A DNA stretch of 64,000 nucleotides, from positions 1,107-65,106 of the forward strand of contig NZ_DASSES010000105.1 of assembly GCF_035695185.1 (NCBI RefSeq), in the 5' to 3' direction. Shown here in pieces: positions 1,148 through 55,706 of this stretch; position 1 is the stretch's first letter, and every line of letters begins with the position of its first letter. Position numbers and translations under genes: made by a program. The notes beneath the pieces are model-generated. The model searched no databases. It had not been told where the DNA came from and saw only the letters and a list, made by a program, of their open reading frames with translations. Source of the stretch: Frateuria sp. (GTDB taxonomy: Bacteria > Pseudomonadota > Gammaproteobacteria > Xanthomonadales > Rhodanobacteraceae).

Positions 1148-3112
1148 TCACTGGCTTGCCGATGCATCGAGGCCGCCGAGCTGTGCCTGGAGGCGGTGGA
1201 TCGTGTCGTCCAGCCGCCCGGCCAGGTTCAATATCTGCAGCCCGCCCAGCGCCCGCAGGGCCTCGTGCTTCTGGTCGAGCGCAATCAGCATGCGAACCAG
1301 CGTGATGCGGTAGGCGGGCTCGCTCGGGGCGGCCTCGACCGCAGCCTGCGTCATGCGCAGCCCGAGCGCGTGGTCGTCCAGGACGTTCCATGCGTAATTC
1401 CCGTAGGACGCCAGCAGCCGCGCGCTCGGATCGGGATGAGACAGCGCGGCGAGGAACGCTTCGACCATCCGGTCCTTGGGCAGGTCGCAGAGCTGCTCAC
1501 GTGCGCAGTCGGTGAGCGCGCCCAGCGAGCTTTCGTCCTGCACGCCGGGCTTCTTCGCCTTGAGCTTGGCGACCATGGAATCCCACCACGCATCCTTGAG
1601 CGGAAGGTGCATGCGGGCGTTCATGAAGATCAGCGCCTGCTGCGGCAGGATCGACGACTTGGGCAACGCCGCCGCGCGTTCAAGCGGCGCGTAGGCCAGG
1701 TGGGTGAAGCGCGAGGCCGGGTCGTAGTGCGAGTAGATGATGTAGGTGCGGCCGAGCTCGTACTGGGCACGCGGGGACTGGGGCGCACGGGCCGCAAGTT
1801 CCTTGGCCAGGTGCAGCGGATCGCCCCAGGCGATCGCGGTGGTGGCCGTCATTCCGATCCACCAGACCGCAAGGGCGGCCAGCAGCGCCCGGCGGGGCAG
1901 GGCGAACATCGGCGCATCGGTGGATCCCAATGCGGCGAGCGGCGGGACGATGGCCAGCAGGAGCCCGAAGCTGGCGAAATAGTTCCGGTGTTCGTACACC
2001 AGTTCCAGTCGGAGGATGGTCCCGGTCAGCAGGTGGCAGCCGAGGAATAGCAGGATGCCCAGGGCGACCAGCGGCCTGCGCCGCCTGAGCCACAGCGCCA
2101 GCGCAAGCAGCACGGCGAGGGCAAGCAGGCCAGCGAAGGTCGACCAGGGCTGGAACAGTCCCGAGGAGACGACGAAATCGTCGTGGTAGAACGACAGCGC
2201 CCCGGGCGTGGGCAGCAGCGTCCAGGCCACGTAGTCGCTGACGATCCTCGCCTCGCTCAGCAAACGGGTGTGCAGAGTGAAATCACGCTGGGCCCAGGTC
2301 TCGGGGCGAAGCAACCCCGGCAGCAGCCAGGCCAGCCCCGTGACAAGCGGCAAGACCAGCACGGCCAGGAACAGCCCGATCACGCGCAAGTCGCGCTTTC
2401 CCGCACGGGTGCGGAAGCCGAAGAGCACCCATTCGATGGTGGCGGCATACAGCGGCAACATGACCGCCGTTTCCTTCGCCAGCACCCCGACGGCGGTCGG
2501 AAGGACCAGGCTCGCGAGGCAGACCAGGAAATACCGGTTGGCCGGCGAGGGCCTGTCCTCCCGCGGATCGGCGAGCATGCGGCAACGGCCCTCGACATAG
2601 CCGAGCAGGCCCAGCAGCACGAACAGGTTGGCCATGCTCTCCATGCGCTGGACCACGTACAGCACGGCGGTGAGGTTGATGGGTAGCAGCAGCCAGCCTG
2701 CGGCGATCAGCGCGGCGACACGCCCGGCGGTTCCTTCATCGCCGTAGCTGGCCGGCGCTGCCAGCCGCAGGATCCGCTTGGCCAGCAGGAAAAGCACCAG
2801 GCCGTTGAGCAGGTGGATGACCAGGTTGGTCAGCTTCATCCAGTAGGGGTCCAGCCCTGAGGCCAGGTAATTGGCGGCGAAGCTCAAGGACGCGAGAGGT
2901 CGCTTGAACTCGCTGGAAGGCGAGGACAGCGCGGCGCGTGCCAGCGAGCCCAGGTCGGCGTGTTCCGGCTGTACCCCGTGGTTGTCGACGATGTTGGGGT
3001 AGTCGTCGAAGATGTAAGCGCCGGAGAGCCCGGGCCAGTACACCACGCAGGTGACGACCAGGGCGGCGAGCAACCACCACCAGCCATGGGTCCTGCGCGT
3101 GGTCTGGTTCAT
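1148..3112 (-). CDS. Polytopic membrane protein with a C-terminal TPR-like domain. TMTC/PMT-like GT-C glycosyltransferase candidate (paralog 2).
   Basis: 654-aa ORF. The N-terminus is a TM helix followed by YWPGLSGAYIFDDYPNIVDN, an acidic DD motif in the first extracytoplasmic loop as in GT-C enzymes. About 10 or more hydrophobic segments follow, then a helical-repeat C-terminal third. Its ATG overlaps the upstream paralog's stop (ATGA at 3109..3112). Confidence 0.75.
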   Translation of the reverse strand: MNQTTRRTHGWWWLLAALVVTCVVYWPGLSGAYIFDDYPNIVDNHGVQPEHADLGSLARAALSSPSSEFKRPLASLSFAANYLASGLDPYWMKLTNLVIHLLNGLVLFLLAKRILRLAAPASYGDEGTAGRVAALIAAGWLLLPINLTAVLYVVQRMESMANLFVLLGLLGYVEGRCRMLADPREDRPSPANRYFLVCLASLVLPTAVGVLAKETAVMLPLYAATIEWVLFGFRTRAGKRDLRVIGLFLAVLVLPLVTGLAWLLPGLLRPETWAQRDFTLHTRLLSEARIVSDYVAWTLLPTPGALSFYHDDFVVSSGLFQPWSTFAGLLALAVLLALALWLRRRRPLVALGILLFLGCHLLTGTILRLELVYEHRNYFASFGLLLAIVPPLAALGSTDAPMFALPRRALLAALAVWWIGMTATTAIAWGDPLHLAKELAARAPQSPRAQYELGRTYIIYSHYDPASRFTHLAYAPLERAAALPKSSILPQQALIFMNARMHLPLKDAWWDSMVAKLKAKKPGVQDESSLGALTDCAREQLCDLPKDRMVEAFLAALSHPDPSARLLASYGNYAWNVLDDHALGLRMTQAAVEAAPSEPAYRITLVRMLIALDQKHEALRALGGLQILNLAGRLDDTIHRLQAQLGGLDASASQ

Positions 3113-5187
3113 GCGGGATCTGCTCTCTTCGCTCGCTGATCAGCCATGAGTGTATTGCGAAGCCTGGCCAACTCCCTATCCCAGTAATGCTGGTGTCGCA
3201 TGACCCATGCATGGAGGCGTGGCATGCCGGCGGCAGGGGCTTCTTCCTGCTTGCGGACAAGCTCGTAATGGTCGAGATGGGCCAGCGCCTCGGCAGGGTA
3301 CCCGGCCGCGCCGAGCAGGGAGGCCTGCTGGAGGGCGGCCGTGGTGCGCGCCTGCTGGTCGAGCGCGCGGTTGAAATCCGCCAGGGCCTCGTCCGGCCTG
3401 CCCTGCATCAGGTCGATGCGCCCCTGCAGGTGGTAGATGTCCTGACGGCGCCCGGCGCTGGACATGAGTCGGGGGCTGGTGCGCGCCGTCTCCAGCAGCT
3501 TGCCGATCGCTGCCATGGTCATTTCCGGACAGGCGGGGTGTTCGGTCTGTTTCAAGGCGCGTTCGAACCAGTGCTCGAGCAGACTGCCGGGATTCCGGGT
3601 GGTGCGCAGCGCCTCTTCCGCCGCCTGCCAGGTCCCTGCACGGATGTGGCCCATCTGGCACTCCGCCCCGACCAGGTTGAAGGCCAGTTGCACCTGCTCC
3701 GGCGCAGCGGCGAGGGCCGGCCTCAAGCGCGCCGCGGCCCCGGCCGGGTTGCCCGCATTCATTTCGGCTTGCGCGGCATTGGCCTGCGCACGGGGCGAGG
3801 CCGGGTTGAGCTTCGCCCACAGCAGGGCCTGGTCGTGGGTGTTGCCCCACAAGGACGTGCGCGCCAGGGTCAGTCCGGCCAGGCCGGCGAGCAGCACGAG
3901 GGCCAGGCTGGCCTTCAGTCGACGCCGGGTTTCCGGCTGGAGGCTGTTCGGCGGCTGCCGGTTGGCGACGGCGCGGACGCCTTGCGGCACGTCGCACAGC
4001 CACAAGGCCAGCGGCCAGAACATCATTACTGCGGGAAGGTAATTGCGGTGCTCGAAGTAAAGCTCCAGCGAGATCGTGCTCGACTCGATCGCTTGCCCCA
4101 CCAGGAAGAACAGGATGGCCAGTGCGACGGCCGGCAGGCGCTTGCGCAAAACAATGGCGGCCCCTACCAGCGCGATGATCGCCACTATCGCCGGCAGCGT
4201 GCCCGGCGGCGACCAGAGGCCCGTCGAGACCACGATGTGATCGTTGAACAATCCGGGCGTGAAAGGCCGTGGCAGCCAGAGCAGCCCCAGGTAGTCGACC
4301 AGGATGCGTGGCTCGGTGAGCATGCGCTGGGCGAGCGTCCACGGACGTGTTGCGGAAATGTCGTGGGCGAGGCCGTGCCAGCCCCGGTAGATCAGGTAGA
4401 CGGCCACCAGCACGGAAGGGACCCCTGCAAACACGGCCATCAGGTGACGGAAGCGCAGCCGGGTTTCCTTCCCCGGGAGGGGGCGAACAGGCGCTACCTG
4501 GTGCAGGAACGTGAACTCGATGGCGAACGCCAGTGCCGGGAGCAGCACGCCGTTGGCCTTGCTGAGGACGGCCAGTACGGTACAGCCGCCCAACCCCGCT
4601 GCCATGTAGAGCGTTCCCGCGCGGGTATTGCCCGACTGGAACGCGCGTCGGCCCCGCAGCCATAGCAACAGGCCGGCCAGCGTCCACAGCAGCGGAAGCA
4701 TGGCCTCGCGCTGGACGATGTAGAGGGTGGTCGAAACGAAAAGGGGATGCAGCAGCCAGAACGATGCCCCGAGTACGGCGGCCCAGTCGGCGCGCATGGC
4801 AGCGCGTTTGCGCATGGCCTCGTCGGCCAGCTCGCCGGGAAGCCAGGCTTGCCCCAACTGGCGCAGCAACAGCGCGAGCAGGGCGCCGTTGAGCAGGTGC
4901 AGCAGCAGGTTGGTGCGCTTGAAGGGCCCGGGCGCGGCAGGCCAGTCGTGCGCGTCGACCAGGAACGAGAGCAGCGCGAGCGGCCGGCCGGTCGGATCGG
5001 CGGTGCCCGAGGTCACGTAGCGCCAGAACGCGGCGCCATTGTCGATGGGACCCAGCGCCCCCAGCGCGGGGAGGTTCGCGTAGTCGTCGAACAGGAAGCC
5101 GCCCTTCAATCCGGGCAGGTAGGCGAACCAGGTCAGGAGCAGGACGGCCAGCATCCCGATCCAGGGCCACCGCGAGGCTTTCGGCAT
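3109..5187 (-). CDS. Polytopic membrane protein with a C-terminal TPR-like domain. TMTC/PMT-like GT-C glycosyltransferase candidate (paralog 1).
   Basis: 692-aa ORF. The N-terminus reads WFAYLPGLKGGFLFDDYANLPAL, the same FDDY motif as the neighbour. It has many TM segments and a TPR-like tail (DIYHLQGRIDLMQGRPDEALADFNRALD). It is translationally coupled to the next gene. Confidence 0.75.
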   Translation of the reverse strand: MPKASRWPWIGMLAVLLLTWFAYLPGLKGGFLFDDYANLPALGALGPIDNGAAFWRYVTSGTADPTGRPLALLSFLVDAHDWPAAPGPFKRTNLLLHLLNGALLALLLRQLGQAWLPGELADEAMRKRAAMRADWAAVLGASFWLLHPLFVSTTLYIVQREAMLPLLWTLAGLLLWLRGRRAFQSGNTRAGTLYMAAGLGGCTVLAVLSKANGVLLPALAFAIEFTFLHQVAPVRPLPGKETRLRFRHLMAVFAGVPSVLVAVYLIYRGWHGLAHDISATRPWTLAQRMLTEPRILVDYLGLLWLPRPFTPGLFNDHIVVSTGLWSPPGTLPAIVAIIALVGAAIVLRKRLPAVALAILFFLVGQAIESSTISLELYFEHRNYLPAVMMFWPLALWLCDVPQGVRAVANRQPPNSLQPETRRRLKASLALVLLAGLAGLTLARTSLWGNTHDQALLWAKLNPASPRAQANAAQAEMNAGNPAGAAARLRPALAAAPEQVQLAFNLVGAECQMGHIRAGTWQAAEEALRTTRNPGSLLEHWFERALKQTEHPACPEMTMAAIGKLLETARTSPRLMSSAGRRQDIYHLQGRIDLMQGRPDEALADFNRALDQQARTTAALQQASLLGAAGYPAEALAHLDHYELVRKQEEAPAAGMPRLHAWVMRHQHYWDRELARLRNTLMADQRAKRADPA

Positions 5188-8052: not shown

Positions 8053-10143
8053 ATGAAAGCTTTGCTCGCAGCACTTGCCGTGGCTCTGGTTTCGATGCCG
8101 GCCGTGGCGGTCGACCTGGAAACCCATACCCCCCACCCGTTCAACGTGCGCGACCTGGTGATGATGGACCGGGTCAGCGACCCGCAGCTGTCGCCCGACG
8201 GCCGTTACGCCGCGTTCGGCGTGCGCAGCACCGACTACGCCGCCAACAAGGGCGTCAATGCGATCTACGTGCTGGACCTGAAGAAGGGCGGCGACCCGGT
8301 GAAGGTGGTGGAGAAGGGCGGTTCGGCGCGCTGGGCGCCCGACGGGCACGCGCTCTATTACGTGGCCCCGGCCGATGGCGTGGCGCAGTTGTGGCGGGTG
8401 GACCTGGGCAGCGGCGGCAGCCTGGACCTGGCCGGGCACCCGGCCGCGGTGCAGGTCAGCCACGGCGTGCTTGACCTGGGTGGCTACAAGCTCTCGCCGG
8501 ACGGCAAGAGCGCGCTGCTCTCCTACGAGGTCTACACCGATTGCGCGGACCTGGCCTGCACCAAGGAGCGCATCGATGGCCGCGAGAAGAACAAGGCGAC
8601 CGGCACGGTCTACCACAAGCTGTTCGTGCGCCACTGGGACACCTGGGCCAATGGCCGCCGCAACCAGCTGTTCGTCGCCCGCTTCGACGGCCAGGGCATG
8701 CTGCCGGCCGAGCCGACCCTGCTCAGCCGCGGCATCGACGGCGACATCCCGAGCAAGCCTTTCGGGGATGAAAGCGAGTTCGCGTTCTCGCCCGACGGCC
8801 GCACGGTCTACTTCGACGTGCGCATCGCCGGCACCAGCGAGCCCTGGTCGACCAACTTCGACCTCTACCGCGTGCCGGCCGACGGCTCGGCCGCGCCGCA
8901 GAACCTGACCGCGGCGAACAAGGCCTGGGACGCCTATCCGGTGCCCTCGCCGGACGGCCGTACGCTCTACTACCTGGCGATGAAGGAACCTGGCTTCGAG
9001 GCCGACCGCTTCGCCATCATGGCGATGGACCTGCAGAGCGGATCGACGCGCGAGATCGATCCGCAGTGGGACCGTTCACCGGGCGCGCTCACCATCGCGC
9101 AGGACGGCAAGACCCTCTATGCCACCGCCGACGACGAAGGCCAGCACCCGCTGTTCGCCATCGATGCCGCCAGCGGCAAGGTCACCAAGCTGGTCGGCGA
9201 CGGTGCGGTGGGCGGCTACTCGCTCCAGGACGGCAAGCTGCTGCTGGCGCGCGATGATCTCAGGCACCCGGTCGACCTGTACCTGGCCAATGCCCGTGGC
9301 CGCGGCCTGAAGCAGGTCACCCACTTCAACGCCGAGCGGCTGAAGAACGCGAAGACTGGTGATTTCGAGTTCTTCACCTTCAAGGGCTGGAACAACGACA
9401 CGGTGCAGGGTTACGTGGTCAAGCCGGTCGGCTACAAGCGCGGCCAGAAGTACCCGGTCGCCTTCATCATCCACGGTGGTCCGCAGGGCGCGATGACCAA
9501 CGACTGGAGCTACCGCTGGAACCCGCAGACCTACGCGGGCCAGGGCTTCGCGGTGGTGACCATCAACTTCCATGGCTCGACCGGATACGGCCAGGCCTTC
9601 ACCGACTCGATCTCTGGCGACTGGGGCGGCAAGCCGCTGGAGGATCTCAAGGCCGGCTGGAAAGCCGCGCTGGACAAGTACAGCTTCCTCGACGGCGACA
9701 ATGCCTGCGCGCTGGGCGCCAGCTACGGCGGCTACATGACCTACTGGATCGCCGGCGTGTGGAACCAGCCCTGGAAGTGCCTGGTCGACCACGACGGCGT
9801 GTTCGACGCACGCATGATGTACTACGCCACCGAGGAGCTCTGGTTCGAGGAGAAGGAGAACGGCGGCACGCAGTTCGATCATCCGGAAAACTACGAGCGC
9901 TTCAACCCGATCGACCACGTCAAGGACTGGCGCGTGCCGATGCTGGTGGTGCACAGCGGGAACGATTTCCGCATCCCCATCACCCAGGGCCTGGGCGCGT
10001 TCACCGCGCTGCAGCGCCGCGGGATTCCCAGCGAGTTCCTCACTTTCCCGGAAGAGAACCACTGGGTGCTCAAGCCGCAGAACAGCGTGATGTGGCATGA
10101 GACGGTGAATGCGTGGTTGAAGCGGTGGACGTCCAGGCACTGA
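8053..10143 (+). CDS. S9 family serine peptidase (prolyl oligopeptidase/acylaminoacyl-peptidase type), secreted
   Basis: The true start is at ATG 8053 (MKALLAALAVALVSMPAVA, a signal peptide) inside track ORF 7729..10143. A beta-propeller region is followed by GASYGGYM (GxSxGG nucleophile elbow), HSGNDFRIP and ENHWV (Asp/His). Confidence 0.9.
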   Translation: MKALLAALAVALVSMPAVAVDLETHTPHPFNVRDLVMMDRVSDPQLSPDGRYAAFGVRSTDYAANKGVNAIYVLDLKKGGDPVKVVEKGGSARWAPDGHALYYVAPADGVAQLWRVDLGSGGSLDLAGHPAAVQVSHGVLDLGGYKLSPDGKSALLSYEVYTDCADLACTKERIDGREKNKATGTVYHKLFVRHWDTWANGRRNQLFVARFDGQGMLPAEPTLLSRGIDGDIPSKPFGDESEFAFSPDGRTVYFDVRIAGTSEPWSTNFDLYRVPADGSAAPQNLTAANKAWDAYPVPSPDGRTLYYLAMKEPGFEADRFAIMAMDLQSGSTREIDPQWDRSPGALTIAQDGKTLYATADDEGQHPLFAIDAASGKVTKLVGDGAVGGYSLQDGKLLLARDDLRHPVDLYLANARGRGLKQVTHFNAERLKNAKTGDFEFFTFKGWNNDTVQGYVVKPVGYKRGQKYPVAFIIHGGPQGAMTNDWSYRWNPQTYAGQGFAVVTINFHGSTGYGQAFTDSISGDWGGKPLEDLKAGWKAALDKYSFLDGDNACALGASYGGYMTYWIAGVWNQPWKCLVDHDGVFDARMMYYATEELWFEEKENGGTQFDHPENYERFNPIDHVKDWRVPMLVVHSGNDFRIPITQGLGAFTALQRRGIPSEFLTFPEENHWVLKPQNSVMWHETVNAWLKRWTSRH

Positions 10144-10150
10144 AGAGCAC

Positions 10151-10235
10151 CCCCCCAGCCCTCCCCTGCAAGCAGGGGAGGGAGTACGTGACTTGGCCCA
10201 TCCCCGCATTTGCCTCCCCTGCAAGCAGGGGCGGG
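10151..10235. repeat. Two REP-like type-A hairpins (CCCTCCCCTGCAAGCAGGGGAGGG)
   Basis: A perfect palindrome lies at 10159..10182 and a variant at 10212..10235. The same 24-mer recurs at 14109..14132 and three times in 15799..15901. Confidence 0.85.
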
Positions 10236-10271
10236 AGTACGTGGTGACCAGCTTCGGCCTGCCGGAGGTTG

Positions 10272-10311
10272 CTCCTCCCCCTGCTCGCAGGGGGAGGTTG
10301 GGAGGGGGTAG
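10272..10311 (+). repeat. REP-like type-B element ending in GTAG
   Basis: ctcctccccctgctcgcagggggaggttgggagggggtag. Related copies lie at 10725..10760, 14171..14210 and 15729..15766. A terminal GTAG is characteristic of REP/SMAG-type elements. Confidence 0.75.
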
Positions 10312-10328
10312 CTTTTCCTCTCCCCAGG

Positions 10329-10682
10329 ATGTGGAAGTCGGGCGTGGAGCTCAGATGGGAACGTGCGCGCAAGTTGCGCAACCATGCCACCGATGCCGAG
10401 CGCCGCTTGTGGCATTACCTGCGGCGCGAGCAACTGGCTGGCTGGAAGTTCCGCCGCCAGTATCCGGTCGCCAGGTTCATCGTGGATTTCGCCTGCGTGC
10501 CTCCCCGCCTGGCCATCGAGCTCGATGGCGGACAACACGCCGACAAGTGCCGCTACGACGCCAGCCGCACCCGCCTGATCGAGGCCGAGGGCTATCGGGT
10601 GTTGCGCTTCTGGAACGACGACGTGCTGTTGCGGGTGGATACCGTGCTGGAGGAGATCCTGCGGTATCTCGGCGAGGTGTAA
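10329..10682 (+). CDS. DUF559 (Vsr/restriction-endonuclease-like) domain protein
   Basis: MWKSGVELRWERARKLRNHATDAERRLWHYLRREQLAGWKFRRQYPVARFIVDFACVPPRLAIELDGGQHAD...YRVLRFWNDDV is the typical DUF559 signature (D...ELDG). The track ORF start at 10269 reads through the REP element, so ATG 10329 is preferred. Confidence 0.85.
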   Translation: MWKSGVELRWERARKLRNHATDAERRLWHYLRREQLAGWKFRRQYPVARFIVDFACVPPRLAIELDGGQHADKCRYDASRTRLIEAEGYRVLRFWNDDVLLRVDTVLEEILRYLGEV

Positions 10683-10724
10683 CCGAGGCTCCAAAGGGGA
10701 GGTCGTTCACTCGTCTGGCTTCCG

Positions 10725-10760
10725 GCTCCTCCGCCTGTTTGCAGGCAGGGTGAGAGGGTA
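10725..10760 (+). repeat. REP-like type-B element (variant)
   Basis: gctcctccgcctgtttgcaggcagggtgagagggta has the same architecture and orientation as 10272..10311. It lies immediately downstream of the DUF559 gene. Confidence 0.65.
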
Positions 10761-10764
10761 TGCC

Positions 10765-11784
10765 CTACAGCCACTTCACCCGCTTGAGCCAGGTGTAGAT
10801 GCCCCCCACCACACCCGCCACCACCACGATCACCAGCGGATACGCCCAGGGCCGGTCCAGCTCGGGCATGTGGGTGAAGTTCATGCCGTACCAGCTGGTG
10901 ATCAGCGTGGGTGCGGCCAGCAGCGCGGCGTAGCCTGCCAGGCGCTTCATCACCTCGTTCTGCCCGAAGGTGACCAGCGAAAGGTTCACGTTGATCGCCG
11001 CAGCGAGCATCTCGCGCATGGCGGCGATCGATTCATTGACGCGGAACACATGGTCGTAGACGTCGCGGAAGTAGGGGCGCAGGTCGTCCGGGATCAGCTG
11101 CGGGTGCATGCGCACCAGCTGGTTGGTGATGTCCTGCAGAGGCGCGACGGCCAGGCGCAAGGTGGTCAGGTCGCGTTGCATGTCGTACAGCCGGCGCACC
11201 GTGCTGCGCTTGAAGGTCTCGGCGAAGATGTCCGCCTCGAGCCGGTGCAGCTCCTCACGGAAGTCGCGGACGATCGGCAACATGTTGTCGACGATGAAGT
11301 CCAGCACGCCGTACAGCCCGTAGCTGGGACCGTTGCGCATCAGCTCGTGTGCCTGCTCGCAGCTGCGCCGCGCCGGCGCGTAGGACAGCGAGGCGCCGTG
11401 GCGGACGGTCACCAGGTAGCGCTCGCCGAAGAAGATCTGCGTCTCGCCGAAGGCCAGGTTGCCGTCGACCACCTGCGCCGTCTGCACCACCAGGAACAGC
11501 GAGTCGCCATAGGCCTCCAGCTTGGTGCGCTGGTGTGCCTTGTGCGCGTCCTCCACGGCCAGGTCGTGCAGGTCGAACTCCTCCTGCAGCTTCAGCAGCA
11601 AGGGGGCGTCCGGCTCGTGCAGGCCGACCCAAACGAAGGTGCCGGGCTCCCGCAGGACGTCGCTGATCGCGTCAAGGCTGACGTCGCCGATGCGGGTGCC
11701 GTCGCCACGGTAGGCGATGCAGTTGACGACCATGCCGTTGGCCGGTGTCGGCGAGTCCGGTCCGTGCGAGCTGGCGGATGTCAT
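10765..11784 (-). CDS. corA: Magnesium/cobalt transporter CorA
   Basis: Start at ATG 11784 (MTSASSHGPDSPTPANGMVVNCIAYRGDG...) inside track ORF 10765..12054. The C-terminus has two TM helices and the WYGMNF (GMN) motif. Confidence 0.9.
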   Translation of the reverse strand: MTSASSHGPDSPTPANGMVVNCIAYRGDGTRIGDVSLDAISDVLREPGTFVWVGLHEPDAPLLLKLQEEFDLHDLAVEDAHKAHQRTKLEAYGDSLFLVVQTAQVVDGNLAFGETQIFFGERYLVTVRHGASLSYAPARRSCEQAHELMRNGPSYGLYGVLDFIVDNMLPIVRDFREELHRLEADIFAETFKRSTVRRLYDMQRDLTTLRLAVAPLQDITNQLVRMHPQLIPDDLRPYFRDVYDHVFRVNESIAAMREMLAAAINVNLSLVTFGQNEVMKRLAGYAALLAAPTLITSWYGMNFTHMPELDRPWAYPLVIVVVAGVVGGIYTWLKRVKWL

Positions 11785-14708: not shown

Positions 14709-15712
14709 GCGGGGCCGCCCTTCTTTCCCGCGCCGGGCTCCTCGCTCGCCTGCTCGAATGCCTCGTACGCCCGCACGATCTTGGCGACCAGCGGATGGCG
14801 CACCACGTCGCGCGAGGTGAAGAAGGTGAAGCTGATGCCGTCGACGCCCCGCAGCACCTCGATCGCGTGGCGCAGGCCCGAACGGATGTGCCGCGGCAGG
14901 TCGATCTGGCTGACGTCGCCGGTGATCACCGCCACCGAGCCGAAGCCGATGCGGGTCAGGAACATCTTCATCTGCTCGACCGTGGTGTTCTGGGCTTCGT
15001 CGAGGATCACGTAGGAATCGTTGAGCGTGCGTCCGCGCATGTAGGCCAGCGGCGCGATCTCGATGACGTTGCGCTCGATCAGCTTGGCGACCTTCTCGAA
15101 GCCGAGCATTTCGTAGAGCGCGTCGTACAGCGGACGCAGATAGGGATCGACCTTCTGGCTCAGGTCGCCGGGCAGGAAACCGAGCTTCTCGCCGGCCTCC
15201 ACCGCCGGGCGCACCAGCAACAGGCGCTGCACGCGGTTGGCTTCCAGCGCCTCGACCGCGCTGGCCACCGCCAGGTAGGTCTTGCCGGTACCGGCCGGGC
15301 CCACGCCGAAATTGATGTCATGGGTGGCGATCGCGTGCAGGTAACGCGCCTGGCTGGGACCGCGGCCCTTGATCACGCCGCGCTTGACCTTGATCACCAC
15401 GTCCTGCGCGCCCTCGGCGGCCTCGTCGACCATCGCGTCGATGCCCGACTCGGCCAGCTGCAGGTTGATTTGGGCGCCGGTGAGCGTTTCGCTTTCGGTG
15501 GCGGCGTAGAGCGCGCGCAACACCCGCTCGGCGGCACGGGCGGGCACTTCTTCGCCGATCACCTTGAACAGGTTGCCGCGATGGTCGATCTCCACGCCCA
15601 GGCGCAACTCGACCTGGCGCAGGTGTTCGTCGAACGGCCCGCACAGGTTCGCCAGCCGAGCGTTGTCTTCCGGGTCGAGGGTGAAGTCGCGTTCGTTGAG
15701 GCCGTTGGTCAT
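14705..15712 (-). CDS. ybeZ: PhoH-like ATPase (YbeZ)
   Basis: Start at ATG 15712 ([17 protein letters not shown]...). The track ORF extends to 15811 through REP repeats. Walker A is [11 protein letters not shown], and the gene sits in conserved synteny. Confidence 0.92.
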
Positions 15713-15728
15713 GGGGCTCCGTGAGTTG

Positions 15729-15915
15729 GCTCCTCTCCCTGCTTGCAGGGGGAGGCCGGGAGGGGGCTCTGATGTCGCCAAGGGCGACCCCTCCCCAGCC
15801 CTCCCCTGCAAGCAGGGGAGGGGGTTGAATCTCTAGAGCCCTCCCCTGCAAGCAGGGGAGGGGGTTGAATCTCTAGAACCCTCCCTGCAAGCAGGGGAGG
15901 GGGTTGAGTCTCTAG
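15729..15915. repeat. REP cluster: one type-B element plus a 3 x 40-bp tandem array of type-A hairpins
   Basis: Type B lies at 15729..15766. The unit ccctcccctgcaagcaggggagggggttgaatctctagag is then repeated with a 40-bp period from 15799, and the third copy has a 1-nt deletion. The last unit supplies the miaB stop codon (cta at 15912..15914). Confidence 0.9.
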
Positions 15916-17258
15916 GCGACGACGGCTTCCTCGGCCAGGTGCACCCGCCCGCGCAGCGAGTTGGTCATGGCCTCGGTGATTTCGACGTCGATGAACTGGC
16001 CGATCAAACGTGCGTTGCCGGGGAAGTTCACGAAGCGCATGTTTTCGGTGCGACCGGTGAGCTCGTCCGGGTTCTTGCGGCTGGGCTTCTCCACCAGCAC
16101 GCGCTGTACGGTGCCGACCATCGCTTCATTGATGATCCGCGCGTTGTCGTTGATCTTCGCCTGCAGCTGCGACAGGCGTGCGTGCTTGACCTCGGAGGGC
16201 GTGTCGTCGGCGAGGTTCGCCGCCGGCGTGCCGGGGCGGGCGGAGAAGATGAAGGAGAAGCTCTGGTCGAAACCGACGTCCTCGATCAGCTTCATCGTCT
16301 TCTGGAAATCGTCCTCGGTCTCGCCGGGAAAGCCGACGATGAAGTCCGAGCTGATGCAGATGTCCGGGCGCACCGTGCGCAGCTTGCGGATCTTCTGCTT
16401 GAACTCGAGCGTGGTGTAGCCGCGCTTCATCGCCGCCAGGATGCGGTCGGAGCCGGCCTGCACCGGCAGGTGCAGGAAGTTGGCGAGCTTGGGCACGCTG
16501 GCGTAGGCCTCGATCAGCGAGTCGGAAAACTCCAGCGGGTGCGAGGTGGTGAAGCGGATGCGGCCGATCGGCTCGATCTGGGCGATCGCATGGATCAGCA
16601 CGGCCAGGTCCGCGGTGCCGCCGTCATGCGTCGGGCCCTGGTAGGCATTGACGTTCTGCCCCAGCAGGGTGACCTCGCGCACGCCCTGCTCGGCCAGCTG
16701 CGCCACTTCCACCAGCACGTCGTCGAACGGGCGGCTGATCTCGGTGCCGCGCGTATAGGGCACCACGCAATAGCTGCAGTATTTGGAGCACCCTTCCATG
16801 ATCGAGACGAAGGCGGTGGGGCCTTCGGCGCGCGGCTCGGGCAGGCGATCGAACTTCTCGATCTCGGGGAAGGAGATGTCCACCTGCGGCTTGCCGCTCT
16901 CGCGCTTGGCGTCGATCAGCTCGGGCAGGCGGTGCAGCGTCTGCGGGCCGAACACGAGGTCCACGAACGGCGCGCGCTTGATGATCGCCTCGCCCTCCTG
17001 GCTGGCCACGCAGCCGCCGACCCCGATCAGCACCGGCTTGCCGCCCTGCTTGAACTCCTTCCAGCGGCCGAGCTGGCTGAACACCTTCTCCTGCGCCTTT
17101 TCGCGGATCGAGCAGGTGTTGATCAGGATCACGTCCGCCTCGGACTCGTCCTGGGTCAGTTCCAGGCCGTGCGAGGCCTTGAGCACGTCGGCCATCTTGG
17201 CCGAGTCGTACTCGTTCATCTGGCAGCCGTGGGTCTTGATGAAGAGTTTGCCGCTCAT
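15912..17258 (-). CDS. miaB: tRNA-2-methylthio-N6-dimethylallyladenosine synthase MiaB
   Basis: Start at ATG 17258 ([19 protein letters not shown]), well inside track ORF 15912..17720. Radical-SAM motif CSKYCSYC and a C-terminal TRAM domain are present. Confidence 0.95.
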
Positions 17259-52938: not shown

Positions 52939-53511
52939 CTACGGCTGCAGTACGAGGTATTCGCCATGACGCCCGGCCCGGCGGGGGGTGGGGCCGATGC
53001 GCGCGCACAGCGCCTGGCTGTCCGGACAGCGCACCAGCGCGCCCGAGCCTACGGCTCGGCGCAGGTCGTCGCTCCACGCCGCGCCGCGCAGTCCGTGCCA
53101 TGCGAGGTAGCCGCTGCCGCACGCTGCCAGTAGCGATCCCAGAAGCAACGCGCGCAGGCTCCTGCGGACCAGCGCACGCTGGGCCGCGGTGAGCAGCTTG
53201 CGCTGCTCCGCCAGTGCGTCCGCCGCCCACTTCGCGGCCTCGGCGCTCCGGTGCAGCTGCGCATCCAGCGGCGCGAGAGCCTGGCGGGCCGTGGTGGCGA
53301 TCCCGTCGCGCGCCTGCGTGCCGAGCATCTCCATCAGCTTGCGCGAGAAGTCCTCCCCACCTTCCGTCCAGTGCCGGGTACTGCGGTCGAGTGACGCCAC
53401 GCTGGCGTCGATGCGCTGCAAGGCGCCACGGCTACGCGTGTCGAGCTGCTCGGCAATGACCGCGAGCTTCACCAGCAGTTGCTTGACCTCGTCGATGTTG
53501 CCGCCGTCCAT
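52939..53511 (-). CDS. Coiled-coil protein with one C-proximal TM helix (190 aa), third gene of the phospholipase island
   Basis: ATG 53511 is preceded by a GGAGGAA SD and lies 14 nt after the phospholipase stop. The sequence is MDGGNIDEVKQLLVKLAVIAEQLD... followed by RSLRALLLGSLLAACGSGYLAW. The track ORF extends to 53634. Confidence 0.65.
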   Translation of the reverse strand: MDGGNIDEVKQLLVKLAVIAEQLDTRSRGALQRIDASVASLDRSTRHWTEGGEDFSRKLMEMLGTQARDGIATTARQALAPLDAQLHRSAEAAKWAADALAEQRKLLTAAQRALVRRSLRALLLGSLLAACGSGYLAWHGLRGAAWSDDLRRAVGSGALVRCPDSQALCARIGPTPRRAGRHGEYLVLQP

Positions 53512-53525
53512 GGCAGTTCCTCCGG

Positions 53526-54968
53526 TCAATGCTGCGCGACGGTGGTCAGTGCAGTCGCCGCGGCCTGTTCGTGGTAGGTGAGCGCAGGCGCCGGAACCTG
53601 CATCTCCTGGCTGTACTGCTGGACCTCGCGCCACCAGGCGGTGCCCTGGGGTGACTGCAGGTAGTCGCCCGCCACGGCGTCCATGGCGTGGTCGTCCTGG
53701 TCGAGCGCGGCGCGGTACAACCGCTCGATCATCGCGTCGACCGGATCCGGCGTGGCGACAGGAGCGGGCACGGGGTGCCGGGCCGTCTCCCGGGCGCCGG
53801 GCGCCGGGGCGATCGCCACGGCACGGAAATCAAAGAGGCTGCTCAAGGCCTCGTCGCGCGGTTCGGCGTTGTAGGGATCGCCCACCACGCGATAACCGTG
53901 ATGGTGGTGCCTGGGGACTTCCAGCGTGTTGTAGCCGTCCGGCTGGAGCCGGTCGACCTTGTGCCAGACGCGATAGAGCAGCAGGCCTTCGGTCGAGCGG
54001 TGCACGACGTTGAGGCGCGGGTCGGTGGGCTCGGGCGACTTTTCGAGGAACGGACGGTCGCTGAGCGCATTGAGGTAATCCACCATCAGGTTGCCGCTGC
54101 GGATGCTCAGGCCGTCACGCAGGTAGCCGCCCCCCACGTCCGAGTGCGCACCGGGCACCAGCACGCCAAGGAAGCGGCCATCCGGCGTCACGCCCGGATC
54201 GATGATGTGGTCGGACTTGAACAGGCCGCGATGTTCGTCCCTGGAGAAGATCTGCAGGCCCGAGATGACCGACGGCGGCAGCCGCCGGTCATAGTCATTC
54301 ATCGGCACCCCGGTACCCACCGGGTCGAACAAGCCCACGGCCTGGGCCACCTTGCCCGGCCCGACCAGCGGCGGCTTGGTGTAGTGCACGTGGGTGATGT
54401 CGCCGTGGAGGTTGCGGGTGTAGATGGCGCCACTGACGTCCTGGATGCCGCGTTCATGCACCAAGCGAGCGAAGCTCGCGGCTTCCTCCCCACCACGACT
54501 AAAGCCGATATCAACCAAGCGGATCTGCGCATGCGGGTCTTGCCTGAGCCACTCCGCGGCCTGCTGAATGAATAGCTGGTACATCTTTTCGACACGTGCT
54601 TCATGCGTGTATCCAATAGCACCGTCAAAGGTGCGGGCGACTAACCCATCCTGAGTGCCGGGGCCAGGAACGTACCCTTCGGCAATTTGCAAGTTTCCTG
54701 CGGATGAGAGTGCAGACACCTGATTGTCAATTAAGGCGACATTTGTGGCATGCAAAGGGTCCTTGTACTTGTCATCGCCAGTTCCATCAAAAGCGGATAT
54801 ATAGAGCCTCTCGTGTGGGATGAGTTGGTGAACAAGGACTGGTACTTTGAATTGCTCCAGCGCTAAGTCTGCCTTGTTATACAAGGCCATATCGCTGGCG
54901 CTAGCGGTATAGGTAGGGACGTCGTCATCCAGAAGCCTATCCTTAAGCGGTTTGTTATTGCTGGCCAT
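53526..54968 (-). CDS. DUF2235 / Tle1-like alpha/beta-hydrolase phospholipase
   Basis: 480 aa. Contains LYISAFDGTGDD, VDIGFSRGGEEAASFA (GxSxG) and VPGAHSDVGGGY, the three signature blocks of DUF2235 (T6SS lipase effector Tle1 family). Confidence 0.8.
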   Translation of the reverse strand: MASNNKPLKDRLLDDDVPTYTASASDMALYNKADLALEQFKVPVLVHQLIPHERLYISAFDGTGDDKYKDPLHATNVALIDNQVSALSSAGNLQIAEGYVPGPGTQDGLVARTFDGAIGYTHEARVEKMYQLFIQQAAEWLRQDPHAQIRLVDIGFSRGGEEAASFARLVHERGIQDVSGAIYTRNLHGDITHVHYTKPPLVGPGKVAQAVGLFDPVGTGVPMNDYDRRLPPSVISGLQIFSRDEHRGLFKSDHIIDPGVTPDGRFLGVLVPGAHSDVGGGYLRDGLSIRSGNLMVDYLNALSDRPFLEKSPEPTDPRLNVVHRSTEGLLLYRVWHKVDRLQPDGYNTLEVPRHHHHGYRVVGDPYNAEPRDEALSSLFDFRAVAIAPAPGARETARHPVPAPVATPDPVDAMIERLYRAALDQDDHAMDAVAGDYLQSPQGTAWWREVQQYSQEMQVPAPALTYHEQAAATALTTVAQH

Positions 54969-54992
54969 TTCCCTGGCACTCGATCATGAGGA

Positions 54993-55598
54993 TTAGTACG
55001 TCTTGTTCCAGACGGGAATGAGATCGGCTCTGTAGTAGCTGTTCTTGTTTCCAGGTTCCTGCTCGGTCTTGGTTGGAATGAGCGTTTTGGTGAAAACGCT
55101 AATCGTTCGGTTGTTCACCTCAAGAAAGATGCTCGGGTCTGCTGCGGGGCCTGGGCCCGGGAAAATGCCAGCTCTTATTTCATCGTTTGGTACGCGGTAG
55201 AGGATCAGCTCGTCTTTGAAGATCGCTCCGATATCCACTTCGGCGGCGTGAGAGGCCCCGTCCAGCGACTTCCACCTAACCAGCGCGGGGGGTGGAAAAT
55301 TCGGAATGCCACCGTAGGACGCGAAACCCCACTTGTCCCGATAATCCGCCGACGCAGGCGGCGGGCTTATGACGTTCCCGGAGCGGAGTCGGGTGAAGTT
55401 GTAATTAGCGTAAATCACCTCGCACCCGATCGTGTTGTAACAGTAGGCGCGGAAATCGTGCCGCTTGAACTTCAACGGAAAGTGGTTCGGTGCCAGGTGT
55501 TGACTCGAACTATCCGAAGAAAACGCCATGGCCGAAAGACTCCCTGTCAGCGCGGTAAGGAACAGCAAGGCGAGAAGGGCAAAACGGGCGTGTCGCAT
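54993..55598 (-). CDS. Secreted protein (201 aa), candidate cognate periplasmic immunity/partner protein
   Basis: The signal peptide is MRHARFALLALLFLTALTGSLSA. G+C is low. It lies 24 nt upstream of the phospholipase gene on the same strand. The family was not recognised with confidence. Confidence 0.65.
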   Translation of the reverse strand: MRHARFALLALLFLTALTGSLSAMAFSSDSSSQHLAPNHFPLKFKRHDFRAYCYNTIGCEVIYANYNFTRLRSGNVISPPPASADYRDKWGFASYGGIPNFPPPALVRWKSLDGASHAAEVDIGAIFKDELILYRVPNDEIRAGIFPGPGPAADPSIFLEVNNRTISVFTKTLIPTKTEQEPGNKNSYYRADLIPVWNKTY

Positions 55599-55706
55599 GC
55601 TCGGGCGTCCTGCTCGATGCGGAAACGAGGAAGACCGAATCTAGGCCACGCGGCTGGAACCGGGCAATGGACGATTCCCTACTTTCGGGACGGGGATCGC
55701 TGATTC

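Follow-up and report, generated by a model that had tools for sequence, protein, structure and literature searches.

The effectors of the type IV secretion system (T4SS) with which Xanthomonadales kill bacteria (X-T4SS), termed X-Tfes, carry the VirD4-binding secretion domain XVIPCD, and DUF2235 is among their listed N-terminal domains (PMC6536674; PMC8740702). They are paired with immunity proteins, the X-Tfis (Souza 2015; Sgro 2019, PMC6536674; Oka 2021, PMC8740702), which are lipoproteins encoded upstream and have, close by, an alternative Met that possibly gives a cytosolic isoform (PMC6536674). Translocation of X-Tfes requires, besides another element, a Gln-rich disordered C-terminal tail. 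Its last six residues include Arg but no acidic residue, with Met, Pro, Leu, Ala, Gly and Ser being abundant; deletion of these six residues abolishes translocation (PMC8740702). A second group, the atypical T4SS effectors (T4Es) Le1637/Le1636 of Lysobacter enzymogenes and XAC2247/XAC2246 (Shen 2023, PMC10989847), consists of XVIPCD-less homologues of X-T4SS effectors at stand-alone chromosomal loci with a co-transcribed detoxifying gene adjacent, and Le1637/Le1636 have been proposed to act in the producer, in a defensive or regulatory role (PMC10989847). Here, we describe a three-gene cassette in a 64,000-nt stretch of Frateuria sp. DNA (assembly GCF_035695185.1, contig NZ_DASSES010000105.1, positions 1,107 to 65,106; hereafter, the window), which encodes a 201-residue immunity-type protein, a 480-residue DUF2235 lipase and a 190-residue membrane protein, the partner. 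The cassette resembles an X-Tfe/X-Tfi pair but differs in having a helical motif of ~55 residues instead of the XVIPCD, and an additional membrane-protein gene downstream. This third gene goes with the tail and not with the lipase domain. The tail and the partner are one evolutionary unit, which is portable and exclusive of the XVIPCD.

The lipase tail and the gene that accompanies it

The 480-residue protein matches PF09994 (T6SS_Tle1-like_cat) with 57.4 bits (cutoff 27). A first-pass annotation, made from the letters of the window alone, had placed it in the DUF2235 family on the basis of the blocks FDGTGDD (residues 60-66, 54771-54791), GFSRGG (155-160, 54489-54506) and GAHSDVGGGY (273-282, 54123-54152), and this placement is upheld. 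The nucleophile Ser157 lies in the second block, an FDP motif is present at residues 214-216 (FDPVGTG), and D61, G62, S157, D215, H275 and D277 are invariant among 10 lipase relatives. Judged by its sequence, this DUF2235 phospholipase has its Ser-Asp-His residues in place and is intact. A homologue search with the lipase gave 851 relatives, the named ones mostly from Xanthomonadales (Frateuria, Rhodanobacter, Pseudoxanthomonas, and Lysobacter), and further genera represented among the genome loci are Dyella, Stenotrophomonas, Xanthomonas, Luteibacter, and Luteimonas. The nearest relatives are Frateuria proteins with 72-76% identity. Four longer relatives (P0057, P0099, P0107, and P0120), which are 52-56% identical over the catalytic domain, bear the XVIPCD (PF20410), and some of the longer relatives also have PG_binding_1. 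The homologous catalytic domain and the taxa (Xanthomonadales plus Variovorax) are thus shared with the X-Tfe/X-Tfi pairs; the lipase, its family and its effector-immunity logic are already known.

In the place of the XVIPCD, all lipase relatives of ~470-510 residues have a common helical tail motif, approximately of the form D-h-x-x-h-h-D/E-x-h-h-x-A-A-x-x-x-D-x-x-A-h ... S/x-x-x-G-Q/R-x-h. It is followed by a Gln-rich stretch and, in most members, by termini such as GPQR, AMQR, QGWQR, or GPVMRM; the window lipase ends in TTVAQH, with no acidic residue among the last six. That the tail is a degenerate or split XVIPCD was ruled out by an hhalign probability of 0.2%, and that the partner is a detached XVIPCD was ruled out likewise (0.5%). 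The lipase relatives of 491-535 residues that Pfam misses carry a divergent XVIPCD (hhalign 97.5%, E 7e-12). The Gln fraction is 0.28 in tail lipases, 0.31 in tail-bearing non-lipase proteins and 0.24 in XVIPCD lipases, compared with 0.04 in background open reading frames (ORFs) from the same loci. Arg is found in the last six residues in fractions of 0.80, 0.95, 0.69, and 0.47 of these four groups, respectively, and Asp and Glu are absent from the last six in 0.93, 0.92, 0.97, and 0.55. By this composition, the tail-type proteins as a family retain the C-terminal translocation signature of the X-T4SS. The Gln-rich, non-acidic extreme C-terminus, and the swapping of toxin domains on a constant C-terminal element, are also found in the X-Tfes.

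Eighty lipase loci were fetched from different species, and the 65 complete lipase genes in them were classified by their C-terminus. The partner gene accompanies 35 tail lipases and is missing from one, whereas it accompanies none of the 24 XVIPCD lipases (Fisher p = 7e-16 for tail versus XVIPCD). Among the lipases in which neither C-terminus was detected, two have the partner and three do not. The tail lipase without a detectable partner is from Luteimonas sp. XNQY3 (L081, 5728-7116), and the lipases of L044, L050, and L065 have no recognisable tail, XVIPCD or partner; L065 adjoins a virD4 homologue. The first-pass annotation had taken both small flanking genes to belong with the lipase. This view stands for the 201-residue family, which is kept with nearly all DUF2235 homologues, and is to be qualified for the 190-residue family, which goes with the tail and accompanies other toxins as well.

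A profile of the tail only was run against 1.84 billion representative proteins at E up to 1e-3 and gave 159 matches, in which the motif always lies 20-90 residues from the C-terminus. Sixty-two of the 159 are at least 250 residues long and lack DUF2235. Ten of these 62 were scanned with Pfam, which identified Zeta_toxin, Lipase_3 (two proteins), PG_binding_1, and DUF6792 together with the XVIPCD, and five had no Pfam family. Genomic context was obtained for six non-DUF2235 tail proteins. In five of them, a gene of the 190-residue family is located 9-42 nt downstream, with E-values of 3e-18 to 1e-58 (E-values from our purpose-built hidden Markov models refer to small local databases). The toxins concerned are an SLT-like plus PG-binding protein (L091), a Lipase_3-like protein (L090, in which the contig end cuts the partner gene), a Zeta toxin (L093), a Phospholipase-like PF26363 protein (L095), and an unknown 751-residue toxin of Rhodanobacter (L096). 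The sixth (L094) is considered below. The tail-partner unit therefore occurs in at least six toxin families, namely DUF2235, Lipase_3, PF26363, Zeta toxin, SLT plus PG-binding, and one unknown. A narrower tail alignment used in a metagenome scan found two loci only. The genes upstream of the five toxins are unrelated to one another and to the 201-residue family. The candidate immunity genes upstream of the Zeta toxin and of the L096 toxin have no signal peptides, suggesting a probable cytoplasmic action for some of the tail toxins.

Divergence was compared across 42 cassettes by Mantel tests, with permutation as the sole correction for shared ancestry. The rho for partner versus tail was 0.53, which was unchanged when controlling for the catalytic domain (partial 0.53). 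The rho was 0.77 for the immunity-type protein versus the catalytic domain and 0.12 for the catalytic domain versus the tail. This pattern indicates a recombination joint between the toxin domain and the tail. The tail and the partner are probably one physical unit as well.

The membrane partner and the immunity-type protein

The partner gene starts 13-46 nt past the lipase stop codon or slightly overlaps it, and across all tail toxins the distance is 9-46 nt. In the window, the longest ORF opens at GTG 53634, but we designated ATG 53511 as the start because it is preceded by a Shine-Dalgarno element (GGAGGA) and the same start is found in all homologues. The structural model shows an N-terminal helical hairpin of ~115 residues, followed by a transmembrane (TM) helix that spans residues ~118-138 (53098-53160) and, at the C-terminus, by a small beta unit of ~50 residues, in agreement with the coiled-coil protein with a single TM helix that the first-pass annotation had described without assigning it to a family. 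We found no family for it in Pfam, NCBIfam or PADLOC and no match in a fold search against the PDB, and a profile-versus-PDB sequence search gave generic helical bundles only. A likeness to HpsJ (NF038305/PF28006) reached 13 bits against a cutoff of 60 and was treated as compositional. Cys162 and Cys169 (53005-53028) are the only invariant residues among the 51 aligned partner members. Because both are located past the TM helix, they fit an N-in/C-out topology with a periplasmic disulfide, and the hairpin is predicted from the model to be cytoplasmic and the Cys unit to be periplasmic and disulfide-bonded.

Frateuria defendens DHo has a 358-residue ORF (L067, 9935-11011) that runs from the lipase catalytic domain, up to ~residue 325, into the partner Cys motif (...DVTLCEGGRLCANVDAKGRRFGERRQYLPVVPR) and looks like a deletion-fused, inactivated tail-type cassette. 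The same strain also has an 888-residue XVIPCD-type lipase (L068).

The 201-residue protein begins with a signal-like segment, MRHARFALLALLFLTALTGSLSAMA (residues 1-25, 55524-55598), and belongs to a family of 243 homologues with 46-82% identity. Nearly all lipase relatives, of the XVIPCD and tail types alike, have a gene of this family upstream at a distance of 0-25 nt. These observations bear out the exported immunity-type partner proposed in the first-pass annotation; its assignment to the Tli type was not supported, as profile searches of Pfam, NCBIfam and PADLOC matched no Tli or other family. The AlphaFold model is beta-rich with a pLDDT (predicted local distance difference test) of 85, mostly >90 in the mature domain, and no fold match was found in the PDB. 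A lipobox TGC is present in 39 of the 44 aligned members, and a Met residue is located four residues past the lipobox Cys in 45 of 48, as in the homologous X-Tfi family, which likewise lies upstream with a lipobox and a nearby Met. The members in most relatives are thus predicted lipoproteins. The window copy retains this residue (Met24) and the GGGAG ahead of it. We infer that the 201-residue protein is the exported cognate immunity protein of the lipase, with both the toxicity and the immunity being putative. The conserved internal Met could additionally give a cytosolic form of the immunity protein.

Possible routes of delivery

We see about an even chance that the cassette is an effector-immunity pair of the X-Tfe/X-Tfi lineage, in which the XVIPCD was swapped for a tail that is recognised by the membrane partner, a probable secretion adaptor. 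We infer that the partner sits N-in/C-out in the inner membrane, that its cytoplasmic hairpin binds the helical tail there, and that it passes the toxin on to a secretion machine, for which the coupling protein of the X-T4SS is the most likely candidate. In this reading, each effector would have in its partner an adaptor that substitutes for the XVIPCD, and the retained Gln-rich C-terminus would be the translocation signal. In a broader form, which falls just short of an even chance, the tail and the bitopic partner may be a portable and hitherto unrecognised delivery module for polymorphic antibacterial toxins of Xanthomonadales and some Burkholderiales, in which every toxin comes with a gene for its membrane-anchored receptor. 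It would serve either an adaptor-dependent second route into the X-T4SS, in parallel with that of the XVIPCD, or a separate route of secretion or release. The first-pass annotation had offered, as its alternative, a three-component system with a different delivery logic, and this was the better half of its interpretation.

Accessory proteins of such a kind are known for other T4SS substrates, and one of them, MobB of R1162, is membrane-associated. The passage of PMC3297438 that cites Parker and Meyer (2007) states that R1162 MobA needs the small protein MobB for the T4SS, and IcmSW/LvgA of Legionella are T4SS adaptors (discussed in PMC8740702). The likeness is by analogy, in that a substrate-specific accessory protein aids the recognition of the signal by the coupling protein; unlike the partner, these proteins serve relaxases or eukaryote-directed effectors, and there is no sequence or fold similarity between them and the partner. 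Four strains or species of the relevant genera, R. fulvus Jip2, Rhodanobacter sp. C06, Dyella marensis UNC178MFTsu3.1, and Frateuria terrea, are listed as X-T4SS carriers (Sgro 2019, PMC6536674). We verified tail cassettes in the first three (L035, L030, and L037, respectively), and Frateuria terrea has close homologues of the lipase and the 201-residue protein.

Several observations weigh against an adaptor-dependent X-T4SS route. The 80 loci were searched within 10 kb of the lipase with the VirD4, VirB4, VirB8, VirB9, VirB10, and VirB11 proteins of pXAC64. Homologues of virD4, virB4 or virB9-11 were found in nine of the 40 non-tail loci, all of which have XVIPCD or long-form variants, and in none of the 40 tail/partner-type loci (p = 0.002). 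Unlike those of the X-Tfe/X-Tfi pairs, the tail cassettes therefore have no physical linkage to the X-T4SS. The window lipase has no XVIPCD match in Pfam even at E up to 1, and its tail has no likeness to the XVIPCD profile (hhalign probability 0.2%). Its terminus TTVAQH has no Arg, unlike ~80% of its tail-type relatives, and in the window copy of the 201-residue protein the lipobox TGC is replaced by TGS, with Ser in the position of Cys. Confidence in the structural model of the partner is modest (pLDDT 69). Finally, P0325 (DUF6792/Phospholipase-like; L094, 4001-5845), which is encoded beside a TrbL/VirB6 gene, has the tail (residues 411-465) followed by a full XVIPCD (residues 485-583) and no partner downstream, and the tail may therefore have a partner-independent role. 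P0325 may be a recombinant of the two C-terminal architectures or an intermediate between them.

The lack of linkage would also fit if the partner itself were an export or release device that recognises the tail and works independently of T4SS and T6SS (type VI secretion system), such as an oligomerising holin-like or TatA-like protein, comparable to the release gene of colicin operons. Such autonomous export is consistent with the stand-alone position of the cassettes in varied housekeeping contexts, with the separate partner copy that comes with every tail toxin and with the lack of copies on the plasmids searched. We nevertheless regard it as unlikely. One TM helix with a cytoplasmic hairpin of 115 residues is unlike known holins and release proteins, and the partner has no signal peptide or lipobox, unlike the lysis (release) lipoprotein of colicin operons. 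Passage through the outer membrane and entry into the target cell, the latter being needed by the toxins that would act in the cytoplasm (L093 and L096), are left unexplained, as is the retention of a T4SS-type C-terminus rich in Gln and containing Arg.

Somewhat more doubtful still is that the lipase is a non-secreted atypical T4E, an XVIPCD-less paralogue kept in the producer as a defensive or regulatory toxin/antidote pair, whose partner tethers or gates the toxin at the inner membrane. The published sequence definition fits, as the lipase is a T4E homologue without XVIPCD next to a candidate detoxifying protein (PMC10989847), and the absence of linkage to vir loci, the weakened C-terminal signature and the lost lipobox of the window copy are in line with it. 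However, the immunity family is exported, as indicated by its signal peptide or lipobox, which argues that the toxin reaches a periplasm, and the secretion-type C-terminus is conserved in at least 100 tail proteins. The published atypical T4Es, furthermore, are two-gene pairs, for which no conserved C-terminal tail or third gene has been reported; Le1638 is a gamma-glutamyltranspeptidase.

The Tle1 lipases of the T6SS (enteroaggregative Escherichia coli (EAEC), 6SJL/6SKI; P. aeruginosa), with their periplasmic Tli1 proteins, are of the same DUF2235 fold family with aligned GxSxG, FD, and GAHSD blocks, and exported immunity proteins and an apparently periplasm-directed action are common to both. 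The similarity is marginal, however; GFSRG, GAHSD, and FDP align with EAEC Tle1 (6SJL), the sole solved relative found for the lipase, at E 4e-4 to 1e-3. Unlike the T6SS pairs, the present cassette shows no vgrG or hcp linkage in the ORFs and contexts scanned, its immunity-type protein matches no Tli family, and it has a signal-like tail and a membrane partner. The Tle1-Tli framing of the first-pass annotation is reduced to a shared Pfam domain and this marginal match, the close relatives being X-T4SS effectors, and its statement that no T6SS genes are nearby was confirmed for the window's 20 largest ORFs. A lipase, an immunity protein and an adaptor make up the three-component Tle3/Tli3/Tla3 set of P. 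aeruginosa. A comparable orphan cargo, loaded on a VgrG/PAAR spike encoded elsewhere with the 190-residue protein as a Tla-like adaptor, is improbable despite the naming of PF09994 after T6SS Tle1 and the weak similarity to 6SJL, given that no T6SS domain occurs in those 20 ORFs or in eight Pfam-annotated contexts of relatives, that close relatives bear the XVIPCD, some within virB/virD4 loci, that what is conserved is a signal-like tail at the C-terminus, unlike T6SS cargo recognition, and that the partner has a TM helix, whereas the known T6SS adaptors are soluble.

Genomic setting and implications

The features of the cassette are listed in Table 1. The three ORFs and the two short gaps between them are as given in the first-pass annotation; the ORFs are co-oriented across 52939-55598, and both spacers contain a Shine-Dalgarno-like element.

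Table 1. Features of the cassette in the window (positions from the first letter of the window)
Feature	Position	Strand	Basis
201-residue exported immunity-type protein, X-Tfi-like, no Pfam	54993..55598	minus	ORF
24-nt spacer with AGGGAA, immunity-type gene to lipase	54969..54992	minus	
480-residue DUF2235 lipase, whole gene	53526-54968	minus	ORF, PF09994
Lipase catalytic part, residues 1-395, Tle1-like alpha/beta-hydrolase	53784..54968	minus	PF09994, invariant residues, 6SJL blocks
Lipase tail motif, residues 405-459, ATPDPVDAMIERLYRAALDQDDHAMDAVAGDYLQSPQGTAWWREVQQYSQEMQVP	53592..53756	minus	Tail alignment and profile
Lipase Gln/Ala-rich extreme C-terminus, residues 460-480, ...APALTYHEQAAATALTTVAQH	53529..53591	minus	Sequence
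14-nt spacer with GGAGGA, lipase stop to partner start	53512..53525	minus	
190-residue partner protein	52939..53511	minus	ORF, Shine-Dalgarno element, 51-member alignment, model

No sigma-70-like promoter was found inside the cassette, and terminator-like matches at the cassette were not more frequent than in shuffled sequence. On one side, the cassette is flanked by maf (PF02545), which is convergent with 6 nt between the stop codons, and on the other by a CPBP/Rce1-like protease gene (PF02517). This placement is as first annotated, whereas the suggested tie of the CPBP gene to the module finds no support, the neighbour being ancestral synteny. Frateuria edaphi has the identical gene order Rce1-like / 201 / 479 / 190 / Maf. 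The trio recurs in differing, unrelated genomic contexts across five genera (Frateuria, Rhodanobacter, Dyella, Lysobacter, and Variovorax), as expected of the three-gene unit that had been proposed.

The GC content is 0.48-0.56 over the 201-residue gene and the first ~150 codons of the lipase (54500-55598), compared with 0.69 for the window, and the tail and the 190-residue gene are at host GC (0.66-0.72). The same gradient from a low 5' to a high 3' end is also present in five relatives (L001, L005, L007, L010, and L035) and is therefore a family trait. Given this recurrence and the synteny in Frateuria edaphi, we rejected the explanation that the GC dip stems from a recent horizontal insertion. 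Because the gradient is equal in distant relatives, the two modules may differ in compositional history.

In the window, a Pfam scan of the 20 largest ORFs identified no T4SS or T6SS domains and housekeeping genes only, including LigD, SufB/D, CysN/C, PhoH, CorA, MiaB-like, and AsmA. Two adjacent minus-strand ORFs, 1148-3112 and 3109-5187 (654 and 692 residues; gene-like GC content at third codon positions of 0.88 and 0.85), have no Pfam match at E<=1e-5. No plasmid copies turned up when 72,556 plasmids were searched by tblastn with two types of the partner. The window stretch occurs in soil and rhizosphere metagenome DNA runs, and no RNA runs are listed. An anti-phage defence system was rejected as an explanation, as the sole match in PADLOC was a weak one to ZorA, of coiled-coil type (E = 0.014).

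Other arrangements were observed among the lipase loci. Xanthomonas sp. LMG 31884 (L064) has two near-identical 491-residue XVIPCD-type lipases (10001-11476 and 15194-16669), each with its own immunity gene. In several loci of Dyella and Lysobacteraceae (L029, L036, L046, and L073), a partial second lipase-like ORF of 320-392 residues is located just upstream of the complete cassette. The genes for an XVIPCD-type lipase and its immunity protein in L002 (4080-11349) have a MoxR-type AAA gene on one side and, on the other, a 318-residue gene and a TgpA transglutaminase gene; the pair appears to be inserted within a conserved MoxR/TgpA gene set. Complete tail-type cassettes were also found in two metagenome-assembled genomes labelled Candidatus Saccharimonadales (L075, 1490-4041, in which the lipase also has PG_binding_1) and Methylobacterium (L020). 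These taxon labels are unlikely, and both contigs are probably mis-binned.

In the literature searched, we found neither the tail motif nor the 190-residue partner family described, and all XVIPCD-less homologues that appear there are two-gene atypical T4Es. At present, the XVIPCD serves both to find and to define X-T4SS effectors, and the tail class, if true, would comprise toxins that such searches miss. The tail profile and the partner family would be concrete starting points for understanding how the atypical effectors without XVIPCD are dealt with. The tail proteins without a Pfam match are candidate new toxin families, their upstream genes are candidate immunity families, and the 201-residue protein has a fold without a solved relative. 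An adaptor role would make the partner the first per-effector adaptor to be reported for the bacteria-killing T4SS; without such a role, the cassette points to a new export mechanism.

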